DNA of 59,812 bases, filler included, from Sluysia triapertura (lineage: Eukaryota), in assembly GCA_046118255.1 (NCBI GenBank). It is 4 parts of 4 records of this genome, joined end to end, with 100 filler letters (N's around TTAATTAATTAA, not from the genome) between each part and the next. Parts side by side here need not be neighbours in the genome. Positions count along the whole stretch, not along the records: positions 1 to 22,527 come from JBJNIA010224018.1; positions 22,628 to 37,620 come from JBJNIA010242214.1; 2 more parts are not named here. One strand, written 5' to 3'. Numbering within the stretch: the first letter of the stretch is position 1; every line of letters starts with the position of its first letter. Both the position numbers and the translations under genes were made by a program. The notes under the pieces are model-generated. The model ran no database searches. It was not told where the DNA came from and saw only the letters and a list, made by a program, of their open reading frames with translations. Shown one piece after another: positions 4,171 to 31,929 of this stretch.

Positions 4171-7100
4171 TACCCAGTAATCTATAATTAACAAATAACA
4201 CATAATCTACAGGACTTCACTTTTCTGTTTTCATGAAACTGACACTCACTAATCAAAACAACTTATTAAATCTGGCAAATATTGTCAGGTTTCTAATCTT
4301 AAAAAAATGATTAATTAGATTCATTAACTTCGTTAAACGTTCCTTTATTTTTCAATAAGCACATCTAATTTTCAAATAATTTTTCCGCATATAACTGACG
4401 TGGTTTCTTTAAAGAGTCAACCTTTAATCATAAGTAGTTAATAAACAAAATTAGTGAGTTCGCCGTGATCCGAGACATACGTAGTTAAGGGTTCGTCTAC
4501 GGGATTTAGATGATTAGTAGTAAAGTAGAGATACGGAGGTAGTATTAACTTATTTTACCAATCTATAATGCTATCAAAGGCTTAATTTCTAATCAACAAC
4601 TTTGAGGTATGAAATTAGCTTGAGATAATAAAACTTGATATCCTCGTATCAATGAGGTTGATTTTTGTGTCACAATTTTGAAGTCTTGCATTAAATAGGG
4701 TTTGAAAAATGATTTTATTACCGTGTCAAAAATACATAAACAGCATTTGATTTTAGAAAATTATAACTCTGAAAGTGATTTCCCTTCAATTTACTTCTCA
4801 ATTAAATGAGAATCGACAAATGAACGCAGAAGTTTAAATTTTGTGGGAGAAAGTCTTTCGTATTGGTTAAACAAAAAGTATTAGTTTACTAAATTAATTC
4901 AAAAACAAAAATTTAACAAAAATTTACAATTTGATAATAAAATAGAAGTTACTTTGAATATTTATAATTGAAATGACTAAATGAATTTTAATAATATATT
5001 TTATAAAGCCTACTTTGAATTCGTCTGAAAAATTTAATTAAAGAAGTTACGTGGATTTTAAAACATGTTAAGCGTGCTGCAAATTATAAGTACTAAACTA
5101 ACCAATATGCAAAATTTTATTATCATTTTGTCTCCTTTTATCTAAAAATATTTGTGTACATTTGTTTTATGAAATAATTCCTAAAAATTCTAACTAAGCG
5201 AGAATGACTGCAGCGAATAAAGTTGTGAAAAATCATTAAATAGTTGTAAATATTTTTATAAATAATTATTTATAGCCAAATTATTGCGTTTTTTATTGCA
5301 GTATGTGTTTATCTGAAATTAATATTAGAAATTTTCTTATGAACCCTCCATAATAGATTGATAATTATTTTGATGTAAAGATAAATAATAAAACTGTTTT
5401 CTATTTCATCTTTTGCTTACTTCGAAAATCATCATTTATATAAATTTTAATTGATAATATTGTTATAGCCCTTCAATTTTTAATTTTTATTGCAAAAAAA
5501 TTATAAATTTTAAAGCAAATAACAAAAAAAAAATATATTACAGAATCATCATGAAAGTATTGGAATGTCAGGATGGTTTAGCCTCAGATTGAGTACATTA
5601 CTAAAGTTAGTGAGGCAGAAGATCTTATTCATATTTACATCTACTTTACACATAGACTTTATTAAGTTTGCTTAACAGATACTGCTTAACTTCTCTATAT
5701 GATCTTTTATTAAGTTTCCTATTAAATATATCACTAGGATATTAATATCTTTTTCTATCTGAACTTTTAACTTTTAACTATAATTTTATTTGAAGTAATA
5801 TTTGATTTTAAACTTCGGTTCTGGTTTATTTCAACCTGAATACTGGTTATTTGGTAGTTAATCTTTCTAAAATCGTTTTCTATTTCATTTATTAAATCAT
5901 ATTACTTTGAAATTCTACGGCGCATGAATTTAATATTTATAATGGGATGTACAGAATGTATATAATTGTTATTATTATTAATATTACAATATCTTTATAT
6001 TAATCCCTTTAATATTAACCTTCCTTATTTCTCTAAATTCTTTTGAATTTCCTTTTTTTCAAATTCCACGAACTTTGTATAGTTTAATATTTAGAAAGAA
6101 AATACAGATGTATGGAGTTAAAAATGATAACCATTAAGGTCTGGAGTGAAAGATGTGTGGATAATTGTTTTATGATCTTGGAACGTGATTGTGAAGTAAA
6201 TCGAATGACTTGATATTCTGAAATGTGGATATGTGAAGCTAAAGGTGATCTATAGAATGAAATTATTTGATTAAAGAGTATTTATGTATTGAACTTCTTT
6301 TAATGATCTTTTAATCTTCTTTGCATTGAAACAAGAACTTACATAATATGAATATTAAATTATATGAATAAATGAGTGTTTACAGAAATTATGCAAATGG
6401 TACTCTTTGGAAACGATTGAAAAAATGAACTTACTAAGTGTTTTATGAATTAAGAATGATTGTAATTCTGTTGAATCTTTTGAATTTCATTGGAAATTTA
6501 GGGATGCTTTTTGGATCTATTTTTTTATTCTTATTAAATTATCATATTCTTTGACATTTTCTCAATATATATGTGTGCACTTTCTCTAGCTTGAAACAAT
6601 TATGAAAGTTTAAAACAGAAATGGTTCCGCCTACGTAACGCGATTTATCTTAAAAGGACGTGTTCGTAGGATTTTTATTTTCCTTTTTTAAAGAAAGAAT
6701 TATCAATGAGGGTCTATATAAACTCCTTTATTATTTTAGATTCTTTTGTCGTATTGTATTTTAACGTTTATCTAACGAATTTTACAATTTAATCCCTTAC
6801 AAATAATTTACGTTAGATTAGAAAATTCAAAAAGAAAATTGTTTAGATTTTAACTTAAAAGAAAAACCTATAATCCAAGTTTTATATCCAACGGAAGACT
6901 TGTTTATAGGTATGTCAAAGTCTACGAAAAGTTTTTCTTACTTCTAGAATGGAGGGTCTCTTTATATACGAATTTAACACAAGAATTATTCCGAACTTTT
7001 TAATTCCTGCTTTTCTAATCTATCCCTTAATTAAAATCAAAAAACTAAGACAATTAGTACCTAATGCACTCTATGAAAGTTTATTATTAAAAATAAAAAT

Positions 7101-9583: not shown

Positions 9584-10460
9584 AGACTTGGAAATATGAT
9601 TTATTTCCAAAAATAATTGATTCCGTTAAAGAAATGTAAAATAATGATTTACGAATGATAACAATTAATTAATTTTTATAATAAATAAATGTTTAATTCG
9701 AAATAAATACTATATTTAACACGGATTCGATGAATTTTAATCAAATAACCATATTGTTTTGTTTTAGAAATCCTTATTACATTAAAATATTGATAAATTG
9801 AAACTTTGTCTGTGGCAATTAGGAAATGATAATCAATTAAAAGTTTCATTTTCATAATCTCAGCTTTTTAGAGTCATTTATTTCAATTACTTTCAAAACC
9901 TTATTATGATTAGTAACAAAATATTGTTTTTATTTAATTGATACTTTACATCGTTAACATTGTATTTACCAACATGCACAGATCGAACTAAACTATAGTT
10001 TAACAAAAATATATCATCATGTGGCTTTACACTATTATCATTAGGGGATTGAGGGGTTTTTGGATAAGATCTACATTGAAAAACCATTTCATTTTGTTAA
10101 AAGACGAATTAAGATAATCATGAATTTCAGCAATTTTGATTAAATAGATAAATTCAGCAAATAAATTTACATTGTTCGTTGTTAAACATTGTTTTCCTTG
10201 GATGATAGTTTGTTTAATTCAATTTCTTGAAATCTTTGATTATTATTATTTTCCTTGTTAATTTAAAATTTTTATATCTGTACCAAATTGGCATAAAACT
10301 AATTTCGTTGCTGTTTTGCTTAAAGTTCATTAATCAATTTTGAATCTTATAAAATTTTATTATATAGTTTTTTAACATACGCATCAATGACTGTGGAGCC
10401 ATGATAGTGAAGTAGTGTGAATTATGTAATAACGATTCAATGTGATTATTAAGTAATTCA

Positions 10461-11013
10461 TGGTGGTGGCCAACCTATTACTTTTTACAAATATTATTAA
10501 AATTTTCTTTTCAATAAAATAAAAGTCATCTTTACTTTCAAAATCTACAATTCACATTTTTAAATTCATTATAAACACTTTCATACATAGTTCAATACTA
10601 ACATAATCAAAATCATATCTTTTTAACATCTCACAATTACCTCTTAGAATGTACCAAAATATAGCCTATAATTTATATTATTCACATCCACTAAACTACT
10701 CTCTTTCAATATATTTGCAAATCACAATCTTCTAACATCCAAACATTACCTTTAGTCAAAACATCAATGTATATTTAAAAATCCATATAAAACATTTATA
10801 CCATTTCAAAATACTTAAATCGTAAGTTTTCAACACCATAACATTTAACCTTCAGAAATCTAAATACATTTAACTACTTTAAACAGATTCAAATATGTCA
10901 AGAAATATTAAAGAATACAAAGAAGGTTCTTGTTAGTAATTCAAAAGAATTTATGCATTTGTAGCAATAATAATATTATTATTTTTTCATTATTTTTAAT
11001 TTTAATTACCACT
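10461..11013 (+). mobile_element. LTR-like G-poor repeat, copy A
   Basis: Starts (T)GGTGGTGGCCAACCTATT, A/C/T-rich body homologous to copies at 17.8, 23.4 and 50 kb (AACATCCAAACATTACC block), AAGGTTCTTGTT motif, ends TACCACT. TGGTGAC follows 5 nt later. Confidence 0.6.
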
Positions 11014-11165
11014 ATCAATGGTGACATTATTGGTTACTATGCATAAATTCTCGTCACCATTGATACCGGCCTGTCCGTCAATTTTATTCATTTCAATGTT
11101 ATTAATATTCGTCCAACCAGAGTGATCGTTTTCATTATTTTTATACCTCTGGTTGGACAGCCAAT
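11013..11165 (+). promoter_or_regulatory. Twin hairpins plus CCAAT upstream of cassette A gene
   Basis: Perfect 13-bp IR 11013-11025/11053-11065; perfect 12-bp IR 11111-11122/11147-11158; CCAAT at 11161. The function is inferred. Confidence 0.6.
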
Positions 11166-11454
11166 TACAAGTGATATTGAAGATTATATTTTGTATTTGA
11201 GTTTGTTGCTTTTCATAAGAAAAATAATATTTATTATTGTATCCTAAGTGTTACTTCTGAATCATACACTCAGCCAATTATAATATGAAAAGGACTGATT
11301 GATAATTATAATAGCAATTCGATCAAAAAATATACTTAAAAATAATTAAGAATTAAATTAACAAAATATTAACATTGTATTTACAAAACGAAAAAGCACA
11401 ATTTTCGATTCATTTATAATCATATCGTTAAAGACAATAGATTATGTAGATTTA

Positions 11455-12694
11455 ATGATAGACAAACGTTTCGTAAAACGAGTATCAACTGTAGATCATA
11501 CTTCTCGAATAAAACCTATAAATATGAATATAATGACTTCTACAACAGAGTTGGAAATTACCACTCCACCAAATGAAAAACATTATAGTCATGAACGACG
11601 GAAAAGCTTAGCAATAGTATTCCAGAAAAAATTGATTAAATTCTCATTTATAATATTTATTTAAGTGTCCTTTATCCTAGGTTCAATGTTAGTGTTTCAA
11701 AAAAATTTACTAATCAAAATCTAGAGCAGATCATTACTCTTATGGATTGCTATGAAAATATATTCAATATAATTAAACATTAAGTTTGTAGTTTGAGAAC
11801 TCTCACCACCAATTTCGACAATAAAACCAGATTAAGCATTGACAACTATATCAGTATATTTTTTCAATGTTATTCGATTTTAAAATAGATCAAATGAAAA
11901 TTTAAAAAGCATGCCCTTTATGAATTTATGATACCAATTCGTACAGAATTACTTGAAAATAATAAAGATAAATTTGAGATGATTCAAGGAAGGCTGAGTT
12001 TTCGAATAAGAGTAGATATAATTAGTCATGTTGATGTCATTGATCTGAATCAAAGTGTAAAGTTCGCACCAATAGTTGCTGGTAAGGTTTATGATTACTC
12101 TGTTCCATGTAAAGGAATCCTTGAAGAAAATAATGTATTGAACATAAACATTATCAAATCTTTTAAGATAAGAATAATGAATACAAGCCTAAACTTAATT
12201 TCAAATAAAGTTTTACGAATTAATGCATCCTAGTTAAGTATCGAGTACAAAGACAAATGTAGAAAAGATTTGAAAATACGTTCTGTATATCGTCATACTG
12301 ATCCTTATAAACGTCATCATCAAGAATTTAATGTACCTTCCAGTAGTTACTCTCAATCCAATTTCTCTCAACTATTTCGATAATTCATCATATTCAAATT
12401 AATGTATTAGAACATCACTTTGCCCATATAGTAGTGACATAAATGGTAGATGCACAAAATTCGGAATTAATTATGTATATGCACACGCAGTTAATCAGTT
12501 AGTGAATCATAAAATCGAATAAACGTCTCACACGGATCACCTGTCCAGACTTACGAATTTACTCAAAAGTATTGGAATACCAACTTCGGAAATATACAAC
12601 AACATTGGTTATACTGGTTATGATAAAGTAAATTCTTTCTATTATTATATCAAAGACAACTTGACTTTTTTTCCTTTTTAGATAGTGAAGCGTA
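11455..12694 (+). pseudogene. Cassette A: unidentified N-terminal region plus degenerate Unkempt-type CCCH finger
   Basis: 12421-12486 encodes CPYSSDINGRCTKFGINYVYAH (C-x9-C-x6-Y-x3-H), then HLSRLTNLLKSIGIP. GT-AG intron 12628-12681. Several in-frame stops. Confidence 0.7.
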
Positions 12695-13329
12695 GCTGAT
12701 CAAGAATATCATCTTAAATGTTATAATTTTTAAATTTTATATGTTGAATAAAAAGTTTCGTGTTTACAGATTTTCGTTAATTATTTATAAACTTTTTAAT
12801 TCATTCTTCATTAAGATTCGATGAATATTAACTTAGGAATAAAAATTTTAAAAATTAAGATAAAAAAATGTTGTAAAACCTAATTTTAAATAAATCAAAA
12901 CTATTTCGTTAATTAAACAATTCCCAACCACAACATTCACTATTTATTTCGTTATTTTAAAATTGCATTAAAATAAAAACCAAAAATCTTATTTCTTTAC
13001 TATTTCTTGCTATTTCTTTATTTTTGTCAATAATCAAATATGTCAACAAGTCATAAATATAAATAGAAAGAATAAATAATTATAATCGTGTGTTTAAGCT
13101 AAGAAATAGAAGGATTTATGCTAGTTAGTGTTAAAATCAATAATTTTGTATAGTGTTATTATTATTTTAAATTTTAAATAAAATAAAATAATTTTTTTAA
13201 TTTAAATTACACGATCTTACACGAAGTTTTACATAAATTAATTACTTTTAAAGGATTGTAATTGAATGTAATGCTCTGAATATTTAAAGATATCATTTCT
13301 ATGCTTTGGTTCTTCTAAATTTCATATTC

Positions 13330-14200
13330 TATTCTTTAATCCTTCTTTCTAATTTTGATTATGTCTATACTTTGAATATTCTTTATAAAGGTGGATATAT
13401 TTAGGTGATATGAATGTAGTTAATTTGTGTGAAATTAATTGATTAATGGTTTAAAATGTGAAATTGTTAAGCACATTTAATAGATCATGCTGCAATAAAT
13501 TTATGTTTAACATGTAAAATGTTTGAGTTTGTAAAATATCTAAGGGCTGCTTTTGAATATGCATCATTGTTAATATATTACGTTGGAAAAAACAGGGTTT
13601 TAAACTAATGGTTGCAAAATCTTGAGAAATTGTGTTCAACTTTTAATGAAGTAATTGATGTAACTCTCTTGCATATCCTTTTAATGATTGTATTTCACCG
13701 TTGTTGATGTTAATGTTTCTGTTTAGTGAATTGGCACAGAAATTTTATTATGTGCAGAAAGATCGGTGTGAATTAAAATTTACGATAATGACGGATATTT
13801 TGCATTCACATTTATCTTGAATAAAAATTTTTGAAGTGTTTGGTAAGGTCGCGTGTTCGTAGAGTATTTATGGTGTGAATTGATTCTGATTTAATTTGGA
13901 TTCTTCGAATGCTTTTCATTTGAATAGTTGAATAATGATTTTCTTTTGATACTCATTGGTAATAAGTAGATATGTATCTGAGTTATTTCTTGAATAATGA
14001 TTTCATTGAGTCTTTTATGTGCTTATTATCAAACTGTGCGTTCTTTTTAGACAACGAGGGATATTGTAAGTCGTGAGTCCATGTTGTAAAAAATGTGATT
14101 CTGTAATACATGTGATTGTAAAATGTATTAGGTGAATTGCATTATGTTTGGTGTTGAATAAGGTGTATATTTCTTTATAGATATAGAGATTTTTGCCTAA
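13330..14200 (-). mobile_element. Decayed non-LTR retrotransposon AP-endonuclease region
   Basis: Minus-strand peptides ITCITESHFL..YNIP (cf. IICITETWL..YNIPGY) and SVIIVNFNSH (cf. IIVGDFNSH) in the correct order. Confidence 0.6.
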
Positions 14201-14785
14201 TAAATTTATGTTTTATGGTTCGGTTCGCTACAATTTTCAATCCGTTCCAAAGCAAAATGAATTTAGAAATAAGATTACGATTTCAGTTGATTGGAATCTT
14301 GCACTCTGAATTTGTGCCGATTAAAAGAATTGGACGTGGAAGTTTTGCCGCTTCTCGGTCTGACCGCGTTTTTTTCCACTTCAAGGAACGATGCCGATAT
14401 GAATGATTCGATGAAATTGATATTCGATTCAAAGACGATATTTGGAACAAATAATGTTAATTTTTTGAGTCAACCTGTACTCGCACGCGCCTGTAGGATT
14501 TTTCAATCAATCTTTTATGTCAGTAATATTTTCCTAATCTAACTCTTTCTAAGAGCATATTCTATTTTTCTTTTCTTAAAATATTCTTTTAATGAGTTAA
14601 TGCTTATATGCATATAAATTTCTCTATAACTTAAAGCAATAGTCTTTACTATCTTGTATATATCTGTCAGACCACTAAATTTAGAATTTATTTAATAATC
14701 AAATTTATTTATTTAATAATCGAATATAACAAGAACTATATTTCAATCTATGTGACAATACAAATTATGTTAAAATGTTTTAATA

Positions 14786-15961
14786 CAAGGAATCATCCCG
14801 ATTATCCGTGGATAATATTTAGAAAATGCAGAAATGAATAAAGAATATTCATATTGACTACTGCGGTCATTGGTTTAAAAATAAACGTGTCCCAGAAGTT
14901 CGAGTTTTTATTAAAGTAAAGGTGATGCGACCCATTAATACTGACGTAATCAAAGAATTTATTGAAATATTTTTTTAAAAAAATTTACCCAATGAATATG
15001 TCAACCAATGTCAAAGAAATTAAGAATAGGACAAAGCACCGTAGACCTACCTCAATAAATTCTCAAACCAGTTTTTCAGTGTTCACGGTGTATGTACATA
15101 ACTGGGAGTTCCCGCGATGGTACCTCAAAAGTATTGCCACATAAAGCAATACTGTTATTAGATAATGCTCCTTGTCATCCATATGAAAGCATAATGAAAA
15201 CAGACGAGGGCCGTATAGCTGCAAAATTTGTATAATATCTTTAATTCTACCTATGGATCAAGGAGGTATCTCTTTAATGAAAGGCCATTATCGCAATGAT
15301 CTTAAAAGCTTTTGCAGCGAGAATGAACTTACGAAAAAACATGACAATGATTGGTGCAATATGTGGAGCCGTTAAATCTTGGAACAAAATTAAGCCATAA
15401 CACTAGTTCGATTATTGTTGAAAATTTTGTCAAATGCAGAAAGTAATGTTTCGGATTATATCGAACTTGAGACATGTAACATTTCAGAATTATGTGAACT
15501 AATGAAAAATTTAAATGGCTTTGAAAATGTTGATGACCAAAATATTAAGAAATGGATGGATTTTGATTCATCTGATCCAGGATTCCAGATCCAGAGTGAC
15601 ACCGATATTATTTCAAATCTAATTTCAAATCCAAATCAAAAGCAAAAGTGAGGTAGAAGATATTACCAATAGCATTAGTCACGACAAAACACTGACTTCT
15701 GTCGATACTTTACTGAAATACAGCAATCAATGGAGTTTCGACTATAACGATGTAACATCTTTACGAAAAATTCGAGATGATATTAAAATGTCATTGAAAA
15801 ATTCACTTAAACAAACCAAAATTACCGATTTTTTAATAAAGCATTGAGTTTATTGTTATTGTTTTTGTATTGTACTAGTATTATTTTATTATTTTTGTAT
15901 TTTGAGGATTATCCGCTCCGACCTTCCCCATCTTCAGCCCGGATAATTTGGGAGTTTACTA
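14786..15961 (+). mobile_element. Tigger/pogo (jerky-like DDE_1) DNA transposon, decayed
   Basis: Peptides AILLLDNAPCHP, SLILPMDQGGI and C-terminal KQTKITDF. Imperfect TIRs (..CCCGATTATCCG / CGGATAATTTGGGAGTTTACT) with TA flanks. Confidence 0.88.
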
Positions 15962-17749
15962 TATAAAGCTGTTTATTCACTAATTATCATTTAACACAAA
16001 ATAATCCTCGCTGCAAACAATGTCTAATAATATTCAAATTATATTATTAATAAATTACTTCTTAATAATTAGATTAAATGATTTTTAATCGAGTTAATAA
16101 CCAGTAGTAAACTTGCCTAAAAGTAAATAAAAATAAAAATCTGACAAACTGAGCTACAAGATTACGATCAAGCGGTCCATATTTGTTAATATACAGGAAA
16201 CTGATTCAGGTAAACGGTACAGTTAATCGAATATTGAGCAACAATAATTAATTTAAATTACTGATAATTTTTCAAATTTTTCTCCTTGATTTTATTATTT
16301 TATTTTGCGTCTTTTCGTAATAATTCTAAAACTATTTATGCGCCATATAATACTAAACCCATAAAAATTATGACATTTTTTAAATCATAAATGTGAAAAT
16401 AAAATTTTATAGTATTATAGAATTAAAATTTCAAACTATAAATAAAAAAATGATTTTCTAGACAAAAACATTTTTTTAACTTACATAAGACCTTAGTACA
16501 TGATTTTGTTGTCCCTTATTTTGCCAAGTTTAATCAAAATTGATGCAAAATAAAATTAAATTTCAAATTTATTATTTTTTTGAAACATTTTAGAAATTTT
16601 GTTTATGTAAGTTAACCATTTATATTTGACAATAATTTTCTTAATGTTATTTTATTATATATTATTTTATTATATATTTTATTATTATATTTTATTACAT
16701 GTTTTATTTATAGTATTTTATTATATATTAATTAAAAAAATGTATTTTTCTTTTATATTTTATTAAAAAAACTATCGATAATAATGAAGAAATATTTATA
16801 AAAACATCAATTTCTAATGCTAGTATTTTAATTTAACTCCAACATAGTTTAAATATGGGTTTAGCTAAAATCCACAACTTAAACTTTTAGTAAGCTTCTA
16901 ATTTAACCTTAGAATAAACTTAAATTGCTCGATATACATATAATATTTATTTATAAATTTTATTATTGTACTAATAGTGTTTTATCTTTATCCAATACTT
17001 TGAAGAAGCGACTGAAATTATGAGGAAAATATGGAATCAACACATTAGGACATAGCTGAATCAAAATGATACTTATACAAAGAAATTTACTTACAAAGCA
17101 GTAATGAACACCATTTTTTAAAAATGCTTTAAATCAAGAAACAAAAGAACTTAATCATCATTAGAATTATCTGAATTATTGGCAAATTAATCGACTCCTT
17201 TAAAGAAAAAAGATATTTTTATTATGCTTTTAAGTTGTTTGAAATTCATTATTAAACCAATATTTGCTATTTCGATGAAAAGAATTAACTATAAAAAACA
17301 TTATCATAGAATGGAATTAAGAACTAAAAAATAAATTGCACTGAATTATCATTACAACTATATCAACAATTATTGCTACTTGATTCCATTATTTGTTATT
17401 TGATATAATGATTATTACCATTTGAATAATTGCTGGACAGTTTAGTAATATTCGAATAAACAAATTGCTATTATTTGGTTCGAGTTCTTGTTTAGTTTAC
17501 AATATTATTTCGGCCGATTTATATTAATCCTATATTATTATTCACGTAATAAAATACTTAAATCAGAACTAATACGTATGATCCATTTACTATTTGTTTT
17601 ATTATTAAATATCTTATACTTTTAAGTGTTTTATTTATTAACCATTTTAAATTATAATGCCTGTTTGTAAATCTATTTGAATGAATTTATATAAAATAAA
17701 TAAACCTCTAGTTTAAAATTCAAAATAATCAATTCAATTGCATTATTAC

Positions 17750-18430
17750 ATTTTACATTGTTACCTTTTCAAAATTTATCAAAACCTTTTTATATTTTAC
17801 TTCTTTCAGATCCATTAAAACCATTTTCCATACTTCAAAACATTTTAAATTCGCATTCTACCAACATCCAAATTTTACTTTCATTCAAAACCATTAATCT
17901 ACATTTAAATATTCATTTAAAACATTTTTATTCATTATCTCACAACATTAGAACCACAATTATATCTTAAGTCATGAAATATCTATTTCAATATTAATCC
18001 AAAAAATTTCAATTTCACAATCTTTTAACACTGAATCATTATCATCAGTTAAAAACATTAAATTCACATTTTAAAACCAATTTAACATCACAAGTAAAAC
18101 GGAATTTCTTTAACATCTTTAAGAAGAATATAAAGTTCAGAATAACAAAATCTTAAAAGAATTTATTTAATAATTTTTTATTGATAAAGAATTTGATTTA
18201 TAAGAAGAAAGATTTATGTAATTTAGTATTACTCTCTTTTAATCAATTTTCACTCATTATTATCATCATTATCATTTCTAAGTGCAGTATATTAAAAAGA
18301 ATTTCAAATTAAAATTTTATCAAACAACTTCAAAAGAACCAATTTAAGGAAATTGCATTTTTTAAGAATAATCCAAAGGTATCGAAAGAAAGATCGTGTT
18401 AAAAGAATAAAGAACTTATGTATTTATTTA
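17750..18430 (+). mobile_element. LTR-like G-poor repeat, copy C (5' motif not found)
   Basis: AACATCCAAATTTTACTTTCATTCAAAACCATTAAT block resembles copies A and B. AAGATCGTGTT at 18390 is identical to 24000, followed by AAGAACTTATGTATTT. Confidence 0.5.
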
Positions 18431-18571
18431 ATTTAATTTTATTATTATTATTTTTATTTTATTTATACACCTTATTATAATAATTATTATCGGAATTTTT
18501 ATTATCATTATAATTATCATTGGTATTGTTCATTGGTATCATTTATTGCTGACCAAAAATTTTAATTTAGT

Positions 18572-18742
18572 TTCTGTCAGTCTTGACAGAATTTCATTAA
18601 ACACTTCAATACCTGTCACCATTTAACATTATCTAATCACTAACTTTTAAATTTCTATGGTGGCAGGCACACATTTACTAGTACATAAATATATGTATTA
18701 TACTCCATTTACCTTACACATTTCGACTGGACATCCAATCAG
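18572..18742 (+). promoter_or_regulatory. Hairpins plus CCAATCAG upstream of cassette C gene
   Basis: IR 18572-18579/18584-18591; IR CCTGTCACCAT 18612-18622 / ATGGTGGCAGG 18657-18667 (one G-U); GGACATCCAATCAG at about 18729-18742. Confidence 0.5.
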
Positions 18743-19220
18743 TTCTACTCTTCATATATTTATAAAATTTATTGCTAAGTATATAAACAAGGTATATTTT
18801 CATACGATCTATGTTAATTAATTAATTGCTATTATATGTGTGTATATATGTGGTTATGTTATAAAAATTGAAAAGATTGACTTTTGGTTAATGAGAGAAC
18901 GAGTTATAACAATGTTGCAGAAATAGGATTTAAAGACGAGTTGTAATTGGTCGTGCTCATAAGTTCGTTTAATACAAGGCATATTTGTGTATAGGTACCA
19001 GAAAATTCAGAGTTAAAAAATTACAACAATATATAAAAACAAGATAAAAAACTGTGGACAGAATATTTTAAAAATAACATTAACATTTCATTTCTTATTG
19101 TCAAATGAAAAAGACTAAAACCTGTAACTATATACAAATTAATCCTGTTATGTTTTAATATTAGAGTTCAATAATCATGAAGAATCAATTAGAGTTTCCA
19201 AATTAACGGATAATTTTCCA

Positions 19221-19553
19221 GTGTCTTTCGAAGCATTCAATAAATGTCAAATGATCAAATTAAAATTAATTGTTTGGGCTAATGCTTTATTAATTATTGA
19301 TGATGAAATTAGAGATGTGATAAATTTGACTTCACGAATTAATCTCGATTATATCCATACTTTGTTCGATAAATTAGTAGTATTGAAATTAAGTGGTGAC
19401 CTTGGTATTAGTAGCATTGTTCCTAAATCAGCCATTCTGATAGGAAACGATATGACATTTATGGATTTAATTATAAAGCAATTAAAAACATTAAATTTAG
19501 TTTATGATTGTGGTGTACCGCTAGTTTTAATGAATCCTTTCCTCACAAAATAA
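19221..19553 (+). pseudogene. UGP2: UTP-glucose-1-phosphate uridylyltransferase (UGPase) N-terminal fragment, cassette C
   Basis: DKLVVLKLSGDLGISSIVPKSAILIGNDMTFMDLIIKQLKTLNLVYDCGVPLVLMNPF matches the UGPase signature KLVVVKLNGGLGTSMGCKGPKS..TFLDLTVQQIEHLN..Y...VPLVLMNSF. The GGLG motif is altered and the ORF ends early. Confidence 0.88.
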
Positions 19554-19596
19554 AATTGCTCTTAATGATCATCCTATTTCAACCTACACTAACAAA

Positions 19597-19884
19597 GTGC
19601 AATTAAGTACAACATATTACAAGAAAGGAATATGCAATTACATTACAACAGCAACAGGCTACTGCATCAAATTCGGCAAAAACTGTGACTACTCACACAG
19701 TGTATTAGACTTACAATCATCTAATCTCAGCATAACCAATTTCCAATATTGTGAGTCCATACCATTCGGAATACCAATCATTCATATCGAAATGAACAAT
19801 GTTTTCTGTTTGCTAAAGGTAAATAAGTTTCTTATTTTGTGTTCCTCTTTTTTATAATGTTTTTATTTATTTTATTTTTTCCAG
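19597..19884 (+). pseudogene. Unkempt-type CCCH zinc-finger exon and short intron, cassette C
   Basis: YYKKGICNYITTATGYCIKFGKNCDYSHSVLDL (C-x9-C-x6-C-x3-H at 19633-19698) resembles Unkempt ZnF3 YYKTGTCIHETDARGHCVKNGLHCAFAHGPHDL. GT-AG intron 19819-19884. Confidence 0.78.
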
Positions 19885-21477
19885 AATTGCAAATAATTCT
19901 AACAAAAAATTTTTCTTATTCATAACTAATAAATGTATTAATTGTTCTGTTTATCATAATTTTTATAAAATTTTAAAATTGTGGGAATTAAATATAAAAT
20001 TTAAATTTACGATAATTAATTGTTTTGAGATGAGAAACCTTCCACATAAAGTAATAAAAAAACCATTAATAAATAAAATATGATTTTAAAGTGAAACATT
20101 ATCTCATAACATAGATTTAATTTTCACAAAAAAATCAACAAATTTCTTAGTTATCTTTCATTAATACACTCACTACTACTCGTTTAAATCGATTAATATT
20201 AGCAAAGTATGAAAATCATATTTAAGGAATAAAAATATAAATAGAATAAAATACGAAAATTTCATAATGAATTAAAAACAATATTAAAAGAAAACATTTT
20301 TATAAAATTAAATATTGATTACTTAATGTGTTGAAAATTTTATTGATTTTAAATGTATGTTTTGTGGTAGCTTAATTAGTTTACTTTATTTAATTAATGT
20401 AACAAATAAACTAAAATTTAGAAGATATTATTTACATTTCAGAATAACTAATAAAGTTAAAATAAGTTGATATAAATGGCAGAATTTAATATTGATAGTT
20501 TGGAAAGAAAATTGATAGCATATAAATATAAAAATTCAAAGTTTAAACCTCAATTTGAAATCGATGAGACAAGGAAAAGGAATTTGTCTTTCTGAACAAA
20601 TTGCTGTGCCAAAATTTGATATTTTTAAATTACTTTATATCTACTCTAAATAATTCTCGATTTTTAACCTTTACGAATGTTAGGTATAACTAACATTTAA
20701 ATTAATGGTCAAAATAGATGAATAATAAATATTTAAATAATAAAATAATTTTGTTATGCAATTGTATTATCCTCTAAATAAGTTAGATATATACTTTTTT
20801 CAATCCATTTTTGGAAGATATTTTTCAAATTTTTTTCTTTTAATAACTTCAACTTCTAAATAAATGCAATATCAAGATAAAAAGAAGAGTTTCCTTAGAA
20901 AACCAAAACACCTACAAACAAACAAACTTACTAATCCCAAAAAAACCATAATCGATAATACTTAGTTTAAATGTTGTTATTGAATGCAATTAAATTTCAC
21001 TGTTTATTATTACTCGATTTTAAAACTAAATTTATGTATTCAAATTTCTTGTACTTTTAAATATTTTACTTCTACCTATTTTTGATTTATCAATTAATAT
21101 TTTTTAATTATATTGTGCACTGGATCTTATCCAATTCCTAATTAATGATCTTTAAATTAAAATTTTAATAAATTAATCATTAACTTGTGTAGTGCTAATC
21201 ATTAACCGTAATATCCACAATCGTAACCATTACAATCTGCATAATTAAAATCTGTGGATTATTTTTACAAGTTTTCAAAAGTATTTCTTGACAACTTGAA
21301 CGATAAATAGTATTTGAAATAGTATTAACGACATCATTTATAATATAGTTTCTATGAATGACAATTAAAAAAATCAATTTTTTTATAAAATAAATTTTTA
21401 TTTGTATGTACATAATCAGCTTTGTGGAGGGCAAAGTAAAATTTGATTTAATTAATTTATATTACTTTTAATCCACA

Positions 21478-22340
21478 ATTAATGCGTGGATAATGACTAC
21501 TAGCCAAATTCCGACCACTTACAGTACCATCTAAGTTCATTGGCAATAAGAAATAAAACCATTGCTGATATTGATAACATTGTTAAGAAGGGTATCGCAC
21601 GACTTGCTTGATAATGATTAGTAATAAGATTGATGAGAAGTGCCGTACCAGAAACCAAAACGGGCATAATGTTTTTCAATGTACGCTTTAAAATCATGCT
21701 GATATAATAAACAAAAAAAGGCCATCATAAGTGAATTAAAGGTAGAAAACCCATGAATTCGATACTGAAGAAAAATAGAATCTAAATATTCTTTAAAACG
21801 TCTATTAATTTCCATAGTCGATGGTTTCCAAATAACTTTATATGTGAACCCAATTCTTATATCAGGTCGTAGTTTGATTTTGTTTCCACTTTTTAAGCTG
21901 ACTTCAACAATTTGTTTGTCATTATAACTAATCTTGATCAATTTGTGAGTGCACAAATAAAAATACCCTTCTTTAGATTGTTCACCAACTAAACCCCACA
22001 TTGGTAAATCATCTATATACATTTGATACCAGTAAACAATTTTAATTGTATATAAAAATAGATGCAATTTTTGTGACGTTAAAGTAATTTCGCAATATTT
22101 AATTCTTTTAACGTCAGTTTTGAAATCAATATCTGACTCACTAAATTCTAATTCTATTCCTTGCAAAACTTCGCCTAAAGTTGCATGATAATGATTTATT
22201 TCTTTTTTTGGACGTTTGTGGTAAAGTCCAACGGTATTCATCCATAAAACTACTTCCTCTCCATCATCATATTCATGTGTATGCTCATTTGCATAATTCA
22301 ACGTACAGAATGATATAATAAATATAAAAAAACTGTCCAA
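21478..22340 (-). pseudogene. TM9SF3: Intronless, internally deleted transmembrane 9 superfamily member 3 copy
   Basis: EHTHEYDDGEEVVLWMNTVG, HYHATLGEVLQGIELEFS, YWYQMYIDDLPMWGLVGE, then YQASRAIPFLTM and GTVSGRNLA. Frameshifts, two internal deletions, truncated, no introns. Confidence 0.93.
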
Positions 22341-22527
22341 GAAAGTGTGATGCGAACATTTAAAAGAAAATATATTATCTTTATATTTTATCTGCCATAT
22401 AACAATCAATAATTATGGATCTATATTCAATTTAAATTTATTTATTAACATATATTTATAATTTCAGAATCTGGTAACATCCAATAAACTAAGAAAGTAG
22501 GAGTTTGCATTGAAAACATTTTCGTTA

Positions 22528-22627
22528 NNNNNNNNNNNNNNNNNNNNNNNNNNNNNNNNNNNNNNNNNNNNTTAATTAATTAANNNNNNNNNNNNNNNNN
22601 NNNNNNNNNNNNNNNNNNNNNNNNNNN
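22528..22627. other. Artificial contig-join gap with six-frame-stop linker
   Basis: 44 N + TTAATTAATTAA + 44 N. Confidence 0.97.
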
Positions 22628-23397
22628 TGTGTTAATTCTTAAATATAAAATGTATAACTTATATTCTCTTGTTCTAAAAGTGAAAATTTTATGTTTTAAT
22701 AAAATATGTGGAAAAATAATAGGTAATCAGTATAGGTCAATGACATTAAATAGTTTGAATGATATGTTAGAGCATGATTCTATGTTTATGAAAATATTAG
22801 TACAGGCGAAACTCATATTGTTAAAACGAACTGTATCGAATTTTATTATTCATAACACCATCCAACTAAGTCCTAAGATAACCATCCTTGACATAACTAT
22901 TATATTAAAACTCCAAAATCTTAACCCGCTTGTGAGCTTCTTGTTTATTTCCTTAATGTTACGAAGAATTTAAGAGGTTACACAGTACTCAAAACTTATA
23001 CAAAGATAGATCTGCGTGAACTATTCAAAAATAAACAATCAAAAACAATTTCCGTTCAAAAATCAAAACTTTTAAGATCATTAATTTATAATAAAACAAT
23101 TAAACACTTAAATTGTTGTCAGGAGTTTACCTCTACAATTTCTTGTCTGGAATACACTTCTACAATCTGAAAAAACAAAAATTTATTTTTAAAACTAAAA
23201 TTTAAAAAACCTAATTCTTAAATTAATAATTTTCTAGAATTAAAAATTTTAAATATTAATCTTGCTAAAAGTGCCTGAAGCGACATCGCTAAAGTATGAT
23301 TAAACTACGTAGTTTGATGTTTAATCGAACTGGTTTTGAACATGGCTTCAACAACCAAAAATCCAGTGTCCTCCAAGAAAAAATGAGACGACGAAGG

Positions 23398-24045
23398 TGC
23401 GGTAGCTAACCTATTTCCCTAATAAACATTCTCTACAAATTACACCCAGAATCAACAAAAAACAACATTAAATTAAATCAACACATTCTACATAAAACCA
23501 TACTCTTAAACATTTTAATACTCTCACATTTATCTCTTTTACATACATTAAAAACATTTTCACCTGTAAAATCAACTAAACACATAATCTCATAACATCT
23601 AAACCACTGTTACATTCAAAACAATTAAACCACATTAAAAATTCATCTAAAATATTTTACTCTATATTTCTTATCAGTTCAATCACAATCACATTCGAAA
23701 TTAATCAACAAACATCTCCAAAGCAAATCAAACATCATAAATTCACGATCTGGTACCAGTAAATCATCCTAATATTCAAACATCACCTTCACTCAAAAAC
23801 ATTAATCAGCATCCAAAAGTCATTGTAAACATTTACACTTTAAATTATCTTCAGCTTGAAATATTATTTAATTCAGAACAGTAAGGTATATTCTAACATC
23901 TACATAAAGCATTCATATTATTTCAAAATATTAATTCTTAAGCTTTTAACTCCCATTACTCTTAATCATAATATGTCAGAAACATAAAAGAAAGAAAGTA
24001 AGATCGTGTTGGTTATTGCGAAAAAAGGAGTTCTGTGTTTTTAGG

Positions 24046-24087
<42 letters not shown>

Positions 24088-24168
24088 TTTTGTTATTATG
24101 ATCTCCATTTTTAATTTTTATTATTTTCATTTATAACAAATACATGAAATTATGTCGTAACTACCACT
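23398..24168 (+). mobile_element. LTR-like G-poor repeat, copy B
   Basis: Starts TGCGGTAGCTAACCTATT, ends CTACCACT (imperfect terminal IR). The body aligns by eye over more than 250 bp with the reverse complement of 49625-50061. Internal (TAA)n. TGGTGAC follows 5 nt later. Confidence 0.65.
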
Positions 24169-24326
24169 ACCAGTGGTGACTACATTGATTAACAATTACG
24201 GTCAATGTCACCACTGATAGTGATACACACATCAATCATCTGACTTTTGTTCTTAATTATTGATCGTCCAACCAGATTTATTTTGTAACTGTTTTTATAC
24301 GTCTCTCTGGTCGGTCGACCAATCAG
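24165..24326 (+). promoter_or_regulatory. Twin hairpins plus CCAATCAG upstream of cassette B gene
   Basis: IR 24165-24180/24207-24222 (15/16 matches); IR about 24259-24276/24306-24323 (15/18). Homologous to 11013-11165. Confidence 0.6.
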
Positions 24327-24528
24327 ATTGATAGTCATTATGAAAATTTTTATTAAAAGCTATGTAAAGCCAATCAGTAGTTGTAATTTTTTTGCATACA
24401 TAATTATTATTTTTGGCAACAGCATTATTCATTACAATTAAAAATTTCGTTCTGTTAATTTTAAAAAGTGTTTGGTAACTCAATTTTATTTCAACAATTC
24501 GTTAGCAGTTTTTTATATATACTAGATA

Positions 24529-25790
24529 ATGAGGCGAGGAAAATATTCGGATAATTAAGGAGATCGTAGAGATGGTTATCATGATTTAAATTCATTGGAA
24601 CAAATTCCTAGAACTGCTATTGAGTTTCAAAAGTTATTTGGTTATGATTTTTTTAGATATGTATCAGTCTTAAGATTCAAAAAAATCTCGTTATGGAAAT
24701 GATGGAACAGAGAGAAAATATTATTCTATTGGTTTAAGTAAACTTCCTCATCGTTTATCAGATTATGATGTACGCAATATTATTTATCGAGAGTGTGAAC
24801 GTGTTGATGCTGATTTCAATGTCAAATTTTCTACATACAATGGAGAAAGAGTCGCGTAAATTAATTTTAGATCATCAAGAGATGCATCAGATGATCAGCA
24901 TAAAGCTAATGATGATAAATATAACGATTATACAGTATGTAATTGTGAAGTTAAGTTTGACTCTATCGACAATAGTAGAGATAACAATGTTCCAGTTATG
25001 ATTACTCGAGATAATCAGAATAAAGTCGCTGAAGATGAATATGACGACTACCAAATATGTAATAATAAAGTTATTAATGTCGAAGTCGAGAATTATGATT
25101 CTTACAATTATAACCCTAATGATGATAAAGATAACAATGCTGCATGCGAATTTACGCAAATTAGGAGAAAGAAATATATTGATGGTAAAGCCAACAACGA
25201 AGAAGAACATGATGTTTTCTTTAGTTGCCGTAAAGACCAATTTTATAAACCTGAATGTTTTAGAGATAAATTTTTTAATATTCATAAAAATAATGTCTTT
25301 AAACCTTAATTATTATAATTTAAGTATAATTAATTCTCGTAATGGCAAAAATAATATTTATGTTATTGTTCATGCTAAACATAAGACTTATGAAAAATAT
25401 AATATTGACGATGAGTATTTTTGTAATGAATCTCAACATAGAGATTATAAGCAGGATTACTGTAAGTCATATAGACGAAAATTTATTCGTATGACTGTTA
25501 TTTGTCCAGGTTTTACTAATGATTGTGGTATCTGTTTATTGCGTGGTTTGTACTGCAGATACATTCATTCTATTCATGAGCTTAAGTTCTGTGAACAAGA
25601 TCATTCAACTTATGACCTGCACCTGCAACGAATTTCAGAGTTGTTGAATATGATTCCAGTAATTTCCAGCATTTCAACCTCAACGTAAGTAACGCCTATC
25701 TATATTCATTATGTGTTATCAACCATTATTACTGTTATGTTTTATTTATAGGTGGAACGCCAACAAGAAATGTCATGCATAGAAGTCAAA
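24529..25790 (+). pseudogene. Cassette B: RBM15-like RRM, D/N-rich linker and Unkempt-type CCCH finger
   Basis: ATG at 24529. Finger CPGFTNDCGICLLRGLYCRYIH at 25503-25568, then HLQRISELLNMI. GT-AG intron 25685-25751. Stops and frameshifts present. Confidence 0.72.
24719..24907 (+). pseudogene. RBM15: RBM15/Spenito RRM1 fragment (absent from the ORF track)
   Basis: YYSIGLSKLPHRLSDYDVRNIIYRECERVDADFNVKFSTYNGERVA*INFRSSRDASDDQH resembles Spenito/RBM15 RRM1 ..SD..I...LYRE...GDFS....ERVA(Y/F)V(C/N)FR..EDAR.AKH. TAA at 24857 sits at the Y/F position. Confidence 0.78.
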
Positions 25791-26049
25791 TACCAAAATT
25801 AAATCTTTTTAAAAATAAATCTTTACATTGTTATTTCGAATTTTTCTTTAGTAATAATATAATAATTGTTGTGAAACAAAAATATTTTAATAAAGAATTT
25901 TTGATAAAAATTAATTTTAAATTTGGTAAAGTTGAAAATAATTTGATTTTAAAATTTAAAAACGATTATAATGTAAAAACTATAAAAATCATTAATTCAT
26001 CACAACAGTGATGTTGAGGCAAATTAAAAAGGCGATATCCACGGAACTA

Positions 26050-26227
26050 ATTATATATATACGATCAATTATAATAGTTTATGTGTTGATGATTTTATTT
26101 TGAGTTTTGTGGTTTATGTGATATGAGTTGAGATTTTGAAATATGGGGAATATTTAATGAGTGGATTTTATGTAAATATGTGACTGTATGTGGCAATAAA
26201 AGTACAATGTACGACTGAGACACCACA
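26050..26227 (-). repeat. Truncated inverted copy of the TGTGGTG LTR-like family
   Basis: Reverse complement begins TGTGGTGTCTCAG and contains CACATATTTACATAAAATCCACTCATTAAATATT, cf. copy B CACATTCTACATAAAACCATACTCTTAAACATT. Confidence 0.6.
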
Positions 26228-26285
26228 TTAATTATTAAATTATGATTTAAATAATTTTTAATTCATTATATATTTAAATGCAATA

Positions 26286-27850
26286 TAGTGAAACTCCTAT
26301 TATCTGGATCAATCGGAACCAGAGGTGATCCGAATAAGAAAAAATCCAGATAATAGTAATAAATAAATTCGAAGAGACATGCACTTCTTAATTGAAATAG
26401 TCTTATTGATTTTTGCTTTAATGGGCCGCTAAATCCCAAATTTTTTTAACAAAGCAACTGCACTGGATCCGACTCTTGTGCTTCAAACCAACGTATAGCC
26501 ATCTCTAGTGATTTTGCATTACTCCGTATATCATCTTGTATACTTTCCACTTAATGTTATAACATCAATTATAACATTTATTATAATTACCAACACGTTG
26601 AACAATTTCATCATCATTTAGCACCTGAAACGCAGAATCAAATTGATCGCATCTATCCACTCATTAACATCTAGTAAATTACAGTCAGAATATCCTGGAA
26701 CTCCTTTTAACAATCCTACTAAATTATTATCTGCAGTTACATCAGCCACCATATTCCATGTTTCAGCTACCATATAGCAACAATCTTTTAAATTAATTAC
26801 TTCGCAAGTCTCCAAATCAGTTTTTTCATTATTATCAAGAAAAAAAACTTTAGAAGAAGTTCTTTATGATAATTACGCCTAACCGTAGAAATTACACTTC
26901 GGTCCACTGGCTGAAGGATTGATGTAATATTTGGTGAAAGAAACATTACTTATACTTACAATCAATGTTATTTAAAACATGTTCAGAAGGACGTGATGGC
27001 GCATTATCTAATAAAAATAATGCATTACCAACTTTTCCAACACTGTTTTTTTCGCCAGGAATGAATATTTTTCAAACCAGTGAATTCATGCATCCTCTGT
27101 TTTGACTGGTGTTGACTATTGGTAGAGACTGTATGCTTTTATTTTTCAATTAAGAACAACGTCCACTCGCTTACTTTAACTCCAGGAGCCTTCTCTCCAT
27201 TTCGTGATGCCGGAGACCTGTTAGGAAGAGCTGCCCAATATAAACCAGATTCATCAAATAAAGTCTTTGTCATATTTCTGGCGTACAATAAAATAGTTAA
27301 ATAAATTTTTGAATTTTTCCGCTGCAGCAAAATCTCATGAAAATTTTCTTCCTTAGATTTCTCACTCCCGTATTCTGTGTCTCAATTTAAATTTCATTAT
27401 TATCAATGTTTGTTAAAATATAAAACTTTCTCAAACAATAGCGGACCCGAAGTAAGTTGACGCATTTCTGCAAAAAGCCATTGCTAAATTACACTGTCTA
27501 CTTTATCATTGATTGGCTTTTTAACAGTTTTTGGTTTTTGGAACATCTTGGGATGATACAAATTTTGCGACAGAATCTTTATTTTTCCAAATGTCGGATA
27601 TAGTCGATGTTCCAACATTGTAATATTTTTTCCCTTCTCACCTTTTTCTGGACGATTTATAATTTTCATTTATCATTTAATTGCAACAACCTCTCTTTCT
27701 TTAAAGGATTTGCAATAATAATTAAAAATAATTAAAAATTAATTATTAATTTTTGATGGAACATTAATTAATTATGAATTTTATTTTTTAAATGATGATC
27801 CGGATAATAGAGTAATCAGCATAGTGGAGGTCCGGATAAAGGAGATAGTA
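26286..27850 (-). mobile_element. Tigger/pogo (jerky-like) DNA transposon, decayed
   Basis: N-terminal KIINRPEKGE (HTH_psq-like), FDESGLYWAALP, LFLLDNAPSRP, FLSPNITSILQPVD. TIR-like ends (AAACTCCTATTATCTGG / CCGGATAAAGGAG). Confidence 0.88.
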
Positions 27851-28850: not shown

Positions 28851-29974
28851 TGTCTTAATGTTATTACTGTAGAAAAAGATTCAATGAGTGTTATGCACAA
28901 CTCAATTGAATCCAGCGTGCCTATAGCAAGAAATTCTTGACTAATTTGTCAATTGTTATTGTGATTTCATGTAAAAAGTTAGCTCTTTATATAATATCGA
29001 GATAATTGCCAGATAGTCGGGAATTCAATTTAATTATTTTGCATGTCTACTACACATGCTATTTTCTTATGTCGACCCATTACTAACATGGAATTTTAAT
29101 ATTAATTTCCAATGAATTTCCGACTTTAGATTGCCTACAGTTATCTGGAAAATTATCGCAAATTCGTTGCTTAATCTTAAATTAACTTGAAATTTTAACA
29201 CTTAAATTCACTTTACAATGTCAAAATACTGAAAACCTTACTCTTAAATGCTTTATCTAGCTTAAAAACTTGAAATACCTTAAAAATTTAACGTTATATC
29301 TTTACTTATGTTGGTCCCAATTCCGGCGCCAAATTTTGCTGTGGTTTTTCTTACACTTAACCTACGGCAAAATATTTTTTGAGCATGGTTCGCTTATTGT
29401 AAGCGTCTTACAACGTATCGTTGGCACTTCTGTAACTAATAAGTTAAAGATCACTTAAAAAATAACGTCTCCGTCTAATAAATTAAGTGAAGAGAGTGTT
29501 ACAACTACTAAATAATTTAATTTTTAATTCAATAATTTAATAATTAAATAATGCAAAAACACAAATTCATTTATTAAAAAGTATACAAAAATCCAAAAAG
29601 CTTAGAATAGTAAATTATGAGAATAAGATTATGTCTTCGTGAGCGTTTAATCTGATTCTAATAAATTTTAAGTAGAGTTTACTCCTCAATATAAGGGTGA
29701 CTTAAAAATTGTATAAATTACTGTGAAATTTAAGTTGATTTAACGATGTTAAATCAGTTAAAATCTAACTTAATAAATATATAATTTACCAAAAATCTGA
29801 AGAAAAGTCCACAATTGATCGTTGAATAATTGGTAATTGTGACGCTTACTAATTTCACAATTATATTGAATGAAATTACCAAATAACTGTAAACATCAAG
29901 ATGGCGACGATAAAATGGCGATTTTCATTGTAAGATGCTAGTTTATATATTAGTCATCTCCAAAGAAAATCGAT

Positions 29975-30004: not shown

Positions 30005-30670
30005 AATCTATTTTTAGAAGCTTATTTTCTATTTAGAAATTTTATTTCCTTTTTTGGAGAAAATAATTTCTTTTATGGAAAATAAATTTCTTTTTTAGAA
30101 AATAATTGTTTTTTAAGTAATTTTAAAATTTAATAATTGATTTTAAGATGTTTTATGTGCTTTAAGTTAATTTTTTGATAGTTTTAAATATTTTTAATTA
30201 ATTTTAAGGTGTCATTTTGACATTTTAAAATTATTTTATAGGGTTGTGATGACAACCTAACATTAATATAATTATAATAATTATTATTATTATTATCAAT
30301 TGATTATGTAAGATACATTTCCATTATTAAAATTGAAATATTGTACATTAATTAAATTGAGATTTACTGTTTTTTTGTTCAATCGTTTAATAAGATTTAG
30401 CTTCAGTACTTAATGAATCAATCAGTTAATCAATTTATATTTTTTCTTTATAATACTCTTACAATAAAAAAGTAATATAGTAATAGTAAATTTAGTTTGA
30501 CTTACTTGAAGTATTTTGTAGAATTTCGATGAATTAGTTGTATAAAGTTGAATATGGTCTTTAACTGCAAGTTCCATAAATGATTCCACTTTGTTCATTT
30601 CACCTGATGTTGTTAAGAATAAAGTCAAATCAGCCGAATAACAATTGGACATTATCAACAGGAAAATCCA

Positions 30671-30930
30671 CTAAATGGCTAATATTACCCTGGCAGATAT
30701 TGCAAAAGGATAAAAATCTTGACTTTGTAATAAAGTAGCTCCAACAAAGGTCCATAAGTTTTCCATAAACGATATTTCATCAATGATGGCTATGTCTAAT
30801 TTCAAGTTCAAAGCAGACAGTGGTGTATATTTAGAAAACAGTAATGTAATACCTGCAGAAGCAAAGCAAGTAACATACAAAGTATCCATACATCTGGTTT
30901 TAATGGCTTTATTATCTAGACACACTCGAG
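30671..30930 (-). pseudogene. Degenerate PIF1-like (Helitron-type) SF1B helicase fragment
   Basis: Ordered motifs FASAGIT (cf. ASSGIA), TPLSALNL (cf. TAHSAFKL), IIDEISFM (Walker B IIDEISM), FVGATLLQSQDFY (cf. FGG..VIL.GDFYQ). Walker A not recognisable. Confidence 0.45.
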
Positions 30931-31299
30931 AAGTACATTATACTATGAAAAATTGTAGATTGCGATGTTAATTGTTTTTGTGGTGTTGAAACTGAGACTA
31001 CTCGATACCTCATTCTTCGATTCCGATATCGACTCATTTTTAACACCATTATCGGGAAGAATATGTTTTAAACTTCTTTGTAGATGGTAAATTGAATAAA
31101 TTATTTGACTATAAGCTATTAGAAAGGTAATCTTTAACATCGTGTTTCACAGTAACCAATAAAGTAATATTATCCATAGAAAGTATCAGCGTATATCTTT
31201 TGCGACCGTAGTATTCGAATAATTGACTTTCCAGTTGAAATGTTGGAGTTATTAAAAAAATAAATTTTATAACAAATACTAAATGTATACTTTATAGAT

Positions 31300-31666: not shown

Positions 31667-31929
31667 ATGTAGTAAAGATGTAGTAAAAGAGACCTTTTAA
31701 GGTTTTCGATTGTTCTCACAGGCTCCAGTATCGAAAGTGACTGATTTGATTGCTTTTTTCGGGTCATTTTCTTTGTTGTCGATTAAAATTATCGCTGATT
31801 TGATTTTGCACTAGTTTATAGTTCGATGTTGTCCAGCGATTGAGATGATAACAGTTTGGTTTTCCTTATTTATATTTATTACTTTATACTGACCGGTATA
31901 TCTTGGCTGCAACTAATGCGGATTTTCTA

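Follow-up and report, generated by a model that had tools for sequence, protein, structure and literature searches.

In the stretch of Sluysia triapertura DNA analyzed here (GenBank assembly GCA_046118255.1; 59,812 nucleotides in four joined parts, hereafter the window), three same-strand units of ~2.3 kb, which we call A, B and C, each carry at their 3' terminus a single CCCH zinc finger resembling the third finger of Unkempt. Our analysis suggests that these units are probably old DNA-level duplicates of one chimeric gene, predicted to encode an RNA-binding protein, which was once under selection and is now likely mostly decayed; the locus is best read as a birth-and-death cluster, specific to one lineage, in which chimeric genes grew out of a partial duplicate of unkempt. 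An earlier note on this sequence had described the finger, the helix behind it and a small intron as a conserved module; we find that this module forms the 3' terminus of duplicated units of larger size, and that B and C are lesioned as well as A. The window has a GC content of about 24% with TAA microsatellites, and its parts are joined by linkers (44 N, TTAATTAATTAA, 44 N) at 22528-22627, 37621-37720 and 48850-48949. Since the first of these sits between B and C, the order and spacing of these two units are scaffold-inferred.

A six-frame pattern scan found the fingers at 12421-12486 in A (CPYSSDINGRCTKFGINYVYAH), 19633-19698 in B (CNYITTATGYCIKFGKNCDYSH) and 25503-25568 in C (finger and helix together, 25503-25684; CPGFTNDCGICLLRGLYCRYIH), all on the plus strand and with a common C-x9-C-x6-[C/Y]-x3-H spacing, in agreement with the earlier claim of an identical 22-codon spacing at low identity. 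Pairwise identity is 10, 7 and 8 of 22 amino acids and 37, 28 and 25 of 66 nucleotides; the fingers of B and C are intact, and the third cysteine of A is, as had been reported, replaced by tyrosine (TAT). The pattern occurs three times in the window, whereas 200 local shuffles contain it 0.045 times on average and never more than once, and while it was derived from the observation itself, the agreement of Pfam and PDB is independent of it. A relaxed match at 43210 has another spacing and carries a tyrosine, and was dismissed.

Derivation from a single Unkempt finger, also proposed in the earlier note, is supported by matches to the Pfam family zf-CCCH_UNK (PF25427), with B above the gathering cut-off (38.7-39 bits vs. 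31.1) and A (23-25.5 bits, E 1.3e-5) and C (13.2-13.6 bits, E 0.07-0.09) below it. Finger 3 of the Unkempt structure 5ELH is the top PDB match for every copy (E 0.031, 4.4e-6 and 0.022 for A, B and C, respectively) and for a three-copy profile (E 2.3e-7), and B aligns to 5ELH residues 92-142, reaching 20 residues beyond the last histidine. The copies share with Unkempt (UNK/UNKL; 5ELH; PF25427) the C-x9-C-x6-C-x3-H spacing of finger 3 and its flanking residues. However, Unkempt has two CCCH clusters, ZnF1-3 and ZnF4-6 (as given in the available part of PMC12136788), whereas each unit here has one finger and unrelated N-terminal parts. Unkempt is also strongly conserved according to the accessible portions of PMC11436793 and PMC8357790, whereas the copies agree at 7-10 of 22 finger residues. 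Neither the six-frame scan nor Pfam, which covered 20 frames and 149 of 178 filtered frames, detected a second CCCH finger in any unit, and Pfam matched no RING domain in the frames covered; the reading frames of the units end 3-16 codons past the intron candidate described below. The three copies are therefore not Unkempt orthologues. The unkempt gene itself was lost in one mite and is present in the other arthropods compared (PMC7738191, in the part of the text available). A search of the 119-amino-acid finger frame of C against 1.84 billion representatives returned a single spurious repeat-protein match, B compared with longer proteins gave 18 candidates of which none scored, and none of the pattern matches in viral contigs (35) or metagenome contigs (261) was confirmed.

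At the other end, each unit begins with a strongly C-skewed tract (A, 10466-10920, starting with GTGGCCAACCTATT; B, 17709-18093; C, 23398-23953; all plus strand), located 1955, 1924 and 2101 nt from the finger, respectively. A fourth copy, D, comprises the tract only (49600-50061, inverted, minus strand; the linker after it ends at 48949), and the finger pattern is not present there. All 6 pairwise comparisons among tracts A-D show homology (z 3.8-28.8; for each pair, 0 of 60 shuffles), with A scoring z 8.1, 5.8 and 3.8 against B, C and D, and with local blocks at 65-75% identity (B-A, 69.5% over 223 nt; B-C, 65% over 244 nt; C-D, 75.5% over 319 nt). Both A and C then carry two long-spacer inverted repeats and CCAAT boxes. 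In A, the first repeat (11013-11065) has perfect 13-bp arms and a 27-nt spacer, and the second (12-bp arms, 24-nt spacer) is followed by a CCAAT box (together 11111-11167), with a second CCAAT at 11274; in C, the repeats lie at 24162-24225 and 24259-24323 and the CCAAT boxes at 24319 and 24370. The two blocks are similar in sequence (A 11003-11197 vs. the C block, 63.5% over 200 nt, E 1e-8). Unit B has a rearranged inverted repeat with a GTCACCA core and the opposite arm order, followed by a single CCAAT box at 18735 (together 18612-18741). The window contains four GC-rich inverted repeats with 9-bp arms, three of them in the blocks of A and C (0.63 expected in total), whereas the count of the CCAAT pattern is circular, the pattern having been built from these same sites. 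Repeat 1 differs between A and C by one two-sided change among 13 pairs, which, from two sequences only, is weak. We interpret the inverted-repeat/CCAAT block as a putative promoter or 5' region.

The hairpins of these repeats fold at z -2.9 to -5.2, and Rfam gave nothing at E ≤1 over 9600-27000. Mismatches in the repeats of C (24162-24323) read as C-A on the plus strand, whereas on the minus strand they become G-U wobbles. The minus strand also gives the better fold for the four hairpins of A and C (11013-11158, 24162-24323); an RNA structure on that strand, or one in single-stranded DNA, is possible at these repeats. The inverted-repeat pattern was also found at two metagenome loci (64-69% GC), chance matches with no further similarity.

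The tract and inverted repeats could instead be the left end of a mobile element, with the units as copies of a non-autonomous DNA transposon (Pack-TIR/hAT-like or Helentron/HINE-like) in which the piece of unkempt was an early acquisition and pieces of other genes came later; we consider this origin unlikely. A, C and D begin with a common motif, which we take to be like a hAT terminal repeat, D is a dispersed inverted copy of the tract 24 kb off, and each unit has C skew on its upstream side and G skew on its downstream side. The start motif is, however, not found in B, and no right-hand repeat was found downstream (best 4-5 mismatches in 14), although decay could have erased it. The sequence downstream of A, B and C yielded neither the hairpin-CTRR nor the subterminal repeat or stem-loop of a Helitron/Helentron 3' end, and near the 3' ends neither inverted-repeat arm recurs as a third copy. 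Homology among the downstream G-rich tracts, or between them and the upstream ones, is not clear (best z 3.9 in 45 comparisons), and homology comparison likewise did not support a pairing of the skewed tracts on the two sides as long inverted termini. The TAA/TAT microsatellite and 12-13 bp inverted repeats do recall the anatomy of DINE-1/HINE elements as described in the accessible part of PMC4067079, in which 12-13 bp inverted repeats lie beside a microsatellite, but here two repeats lie inside the 5' region with no 3' counterpart found, and their spacers (24-29 nt) are longer than the 3-22 bp given for DINE-1 in the same portion of that source. Animal Pack-TIRs such as Ssk-FB4 are, like the units, present in multiple copies, and they form chimeric genes whose captured pieces can become selected protein families (PMC8277862, as far as its available text goes); in contrast, no paired terminal repeats or target-site duplications were found around A, B and C, and the divergence among them is far older.

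Similarity between A and C continues past the finger for 34 ungapped amino acids (a score that 11 of 2000 shuffles reach when alignment is free and 1 of 20000 when the offset is fixed), a region which in A (12487-12627, plus strand; HLSRLTNLLKSI) comprises a linker and a predicted amphipathic helix. The earlier note had swapped two pairings here: the motif HLxRxxxLLxxI, given to A and B, belongs to A and C (12421 and 25503), whereas SI..GIP..NN..K, given to A and C, is visible in A and B (12421 and 19633) yet not significant. As YDLHLQRISELL in C looks to us, by eye and unscored, like the 5ELH chain YDIRELQAMEA, the linker of Unkempt may be where the helix, too, originated. The helix of A and C presumably also fits the spacing of a leucine-rich export signal, as a candidate only.

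The GT-AG intron candidates start 141, 120 and 116 nt past the last histidine of A, B and C, at 12628-12681 (54 nt, phase 0), 19819-19884 (66 nt, phase 0) and 25685-25751 (67 nt, phase 2), and are followed by last exons at 12682-12699 (IVKRS and a stop), 19885-19896 (NCK and a stop) and 25752-25782, all on the plus strand. The introns of 54, 66 and 67 nt proposed earlier thus stand as candidate sequences, with splicing predicted. Under a strict intron filter A and B are retained and C is lost, and the five plus-strand matches it gives in the window are no excess over shuffles (mean 3.7); a relaxed filter, with thresholds set after the fact, passes all three against a background near 0.01 per 60 nt. 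Three candidates at matching places are unlikely by chance. A further strong GT-AG candidate of 48 nt (25462-25509, plus strand) overlaps the first cysteine of C, and on a reading of the sequence its removal would rebuild the cysteine codon and give an in-frame C-x7-C-x6-C-x3-H finger.

The past purifying selection suggested in the earlier note is supported for both the zinc ligands and the helix. Across A, B and C, 11 of 12 ligands are retained, and in a simplified neutral simulation at least 11 of 12 survived in 0 of 4000 runs at the divergence of the fingers themselves, in 0.075% of runs at 59% identity and in 1.7% at 68%. The A-C helix is conserved mainly at second codon positions (7, 23 and 14 of 34 identical at positions 1, 2 and 3; binomial P 1e-4 to 1.5e-3), and among finger codons for the same residue 5 of 10, 5 of 7 and 7 of 8 show synonymous differences. 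The flanks of the units align at 50-60%, a gap-inflated figure, and as finger identity (38-56%) is only slightly below it, positive selection on the spacer residues is not claimed. The ligand and codon-position patterns are non-neutral, which argues against the view that the fingers, lying in a region rich in pseudogenes, are either chance motifs or scraps of unkempt that decay neutrally and independently of one another. The region is rich in decayed genes and transposons, overall identity between the copies is low and tblastn gives no cross-matches among A, B and C, but all three scraps would have to come from one and the same finger and be similarly spaced from a homologous tract, each with an intron candidate after it, and we regard this explanation as very improbable.

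Between the two ends the copies differ. The middle of B is an uninterrupted, shortened UGP2 N-terminal fragment (19143-19553, plus strand; Pfam UDPGP E 1.6e-17, profile positions 7-113 of 413), in which PDB alignments reveal an altered glycine loop and a 2-amino-acid deletion, so B is not a full-length UDP-glucose pyrophosphorylase and its glycine-rich nucleotide loop is not intact. Its frame overlaps, out of frame, the open frame with the finger and Unkempt-like linker (19534-19818, plus strand; Pfam and 5ELH match). In A, a coding-like frame with five stops (11667-12383, plus strand) yields a weak all-beta/immunoglobulin (Ig)-like lead (Atlas Ig-like/ASH 0.86, recognition below threshold; model with predicted local distance difference test [pLDDT] 38, best Z 5.1). 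In C, a candidate RRM-like stretch with a stop at 24857 precedes an Asn/Asp-rich frame (together 24704-25309, plus strand) that contains an internal duplication (24889-24953/25009-25073). We take the RRM-like stretch to resemble the RRM of RBM15/Spenito, which no search confirmed: it has no Pfam, PDB or database match (12 database candidates, none scored), and its model shows a helix-strand layout at pLDDT 62 (best Foldseek E 0.45, best Z 4.7). An N-terminal RRM common to A, B and C is unsupported (z below 1, with scores reached by 874-4093 of 5000 shuffles). The cellular nature of the cargo genes speaks against the units being relics of an endogenous DNA virus or a polydnavirus-like segment with host-derived genes. 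Compact AT-rich units with small introns would suit such a source, and one Atlas look-alike cluster for B is Nucleocytoviricota (score 0.87, a lead only), but no viral hallmark families were found in the scanned frames apart from the reverse transcriptase/RNase H of a long terminal repeat (LTR) retrotransposon, and a viral origin is extremely improbable.

The copies are now likely mostly decayed. A has in-frame TAA stops at 12400 and 12520 in addition to the Cys to Tyr change and the stops in its middle; in B the UGP2/finger junction is out of frame and no ATG precedes the finger in its frame; and C combines the stop at 24857 with a frame change before the finger, whose open frame (25002-25688, plus strand) is not that of the middle, and an intron phase shift. 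Alternatively, B and/or C could be live, expressed and fast-evolving genes, their lesions being assembly errors or bypassed by splicing or an internal start. Both keep all four ligands and strong splice signals, the two open frames of B, 136 and 95 codons long, share an A-rich junction where they overlap, and the finger frame of C is open over 228 codons with ATGs at 25293 and 25491. The stop, frame change and phase shift in C, the missing ATG in B together with the lack of any acceptor found bridging its junction, and the several independent lesions of A nevertheless leave this a rather improbable explanation.

Several observations weigh against selected, duplicated and then decayed genes. 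Comparison of the introns and 3' ends of A, B and C revealed no DNA similarity beyond the finger, and past the finger B resembles neither A nor C significantly (A-B, 597 of 2000 shuffles; B-C, 317 of 2000). The middles give no protein or DNA alignment signal, so that the descent of the entire unit from one ancestor is deduced from its two ends only, and the cargo of A and C matched no known gene. The open UGP2 frame is only weakly unexpected (neutral survival 0.01-0.18), and the lesions could include assembly errors. The ligand simulation was substitution-only, assumed a star tree and used the B finger as a stand-in ancestor, and the conservation it addresses carries some ascertainment, since it was the ligands that drew attention to the fingers. 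This last bias is partly offset, since the units are defined independently by upstream homology and three of the four tracts are followed by a finger.

The surroundings of the units contain other gene copies and mobile elements. Between B and C lies a TM9SF3 copy (21478-22340, minus strand) with no intron in the aligned part, whose best named matches are metazoan (45-55% identity), marking the window as animal DNA, and which is 47-54% identical to orthologues that are themselves 73-84% identical to the Limulus protein. It carries 14-amino-acid and roughly 110-amino-acid deletions, two frameshifts and a truncation, and has a branch length of 1.43 and no reliable placement in a tree of 120 homologues. 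Being uninterrupted in frame yet decayed, it indicates that the region collects such copies; its first 228 codons are open (≤0.005 under neutral substitution), and so it may have persisted as a fast-evolving truncated gene. Just downstream of A and C sit two similar decayed DNA transposons (about 14775-15960, plus strand, and 26280-27400, minus strand; DDE_1 match at 26800-26949), presumably Tigger/pogo-like. A decayed LTR retrotransposon (about 31900-33600, minus strand) has RVT_1 and RT_RNaseH in broken frames, and a ligand-gated ion channel fragment, ionotropic-receptor-like, is interrupted by a stop (30422-30937, minus strand; Pfam Lig_chan E 5.6e-5). Two dispersed repeat families, each at 75-90% identity in short blocks, occur at 3893-4206, 31534-31715 and 41366-41757 (which we assume to be a Penelope-like element) and at 256-330 with 29261-29455. 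A 95-amino-acid open frame (1999-2286, minus strand) is hydrophobic at its N-terminus and in a second segment, resembles a small single-pass membrane protein and has no significant Pfam match. Coding-like frames broken by stops at about 33900-35300 and 43200-44000 (minus strand) gave no Pfam family on read-through.

A chimeric family with a single Unkempt finger was not found described in the literature searched, and nor was Unkempt as the donor of a chimeric gene, most subscription papers lying outside its coverage. In Drosophila, kep1 is reportedly a young chimeric, lineage-specific duplicate family, and jingwei and Sdic are said to be young chimeric genes. The units resemble these in being local duplicates assembled from older gene pieces, with selection followed by partial pseudogenization, but differ in that both ends are common to the copies and the middle differs in each. 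On our preferred reading of a birth-and-death cluster, a partial unkempt copy comprising finger 3, the linker helix and one intron would first have gained a CCAAT-type promoter. The whole unit, whose copies are homologous, would then have been duplicated locally, and since it was duplicated with its intron this would have occurred by DNA and not through RNA. The middles would subsequently have been replaced or overgrown by pieces of other genes, for which B provides the cargo, probably through retro- or repair-templated insertions such as the uninterrupted UGP2 fragment. Selection, with statistical support, appears to have held the zinc ligands and helix as the remainder drifted, and the copies would have decayed afterwards through the lesions seen in the assembly.

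Granting this history, the proteins could have been weak single-finger binders of A/U-rich RNA with a variable N-terminus, the helix acting as a partner-binding or export surface, a role we put forward tentatively and with some doubt. In Unkempt, ZnF1-3 binds A/U-rich RNA more weakly than ZnF4-6 (2.4 vs. 0.4 uM in the available text of PMC12136788), and by analogy a lone finger 3 would bind more weakly still, which fits a tethering tail aided by the amphipathic helix. If the copies are dead local duplicates, they are a neat, minor case of chimeric gene birth and death. A bolder proposal, which we think unlikely, is a reusable and possibly transposon-borne gene-shuffling cassette in which a fixed promoter and Unkempt-finger tail would repeatedly have taken up varied housekeeping-gene fragments, some members still being alive at this locus or in another part of the genome; if true, it would amount to a selected family of chimeric RNA-tethering proteins. 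A selected single-finger offshoot serving as a constant tail on variable cargo would illustrate how new RNA-binding proteins arise, and would make the stand-alone function of one Unkempt finger testable.

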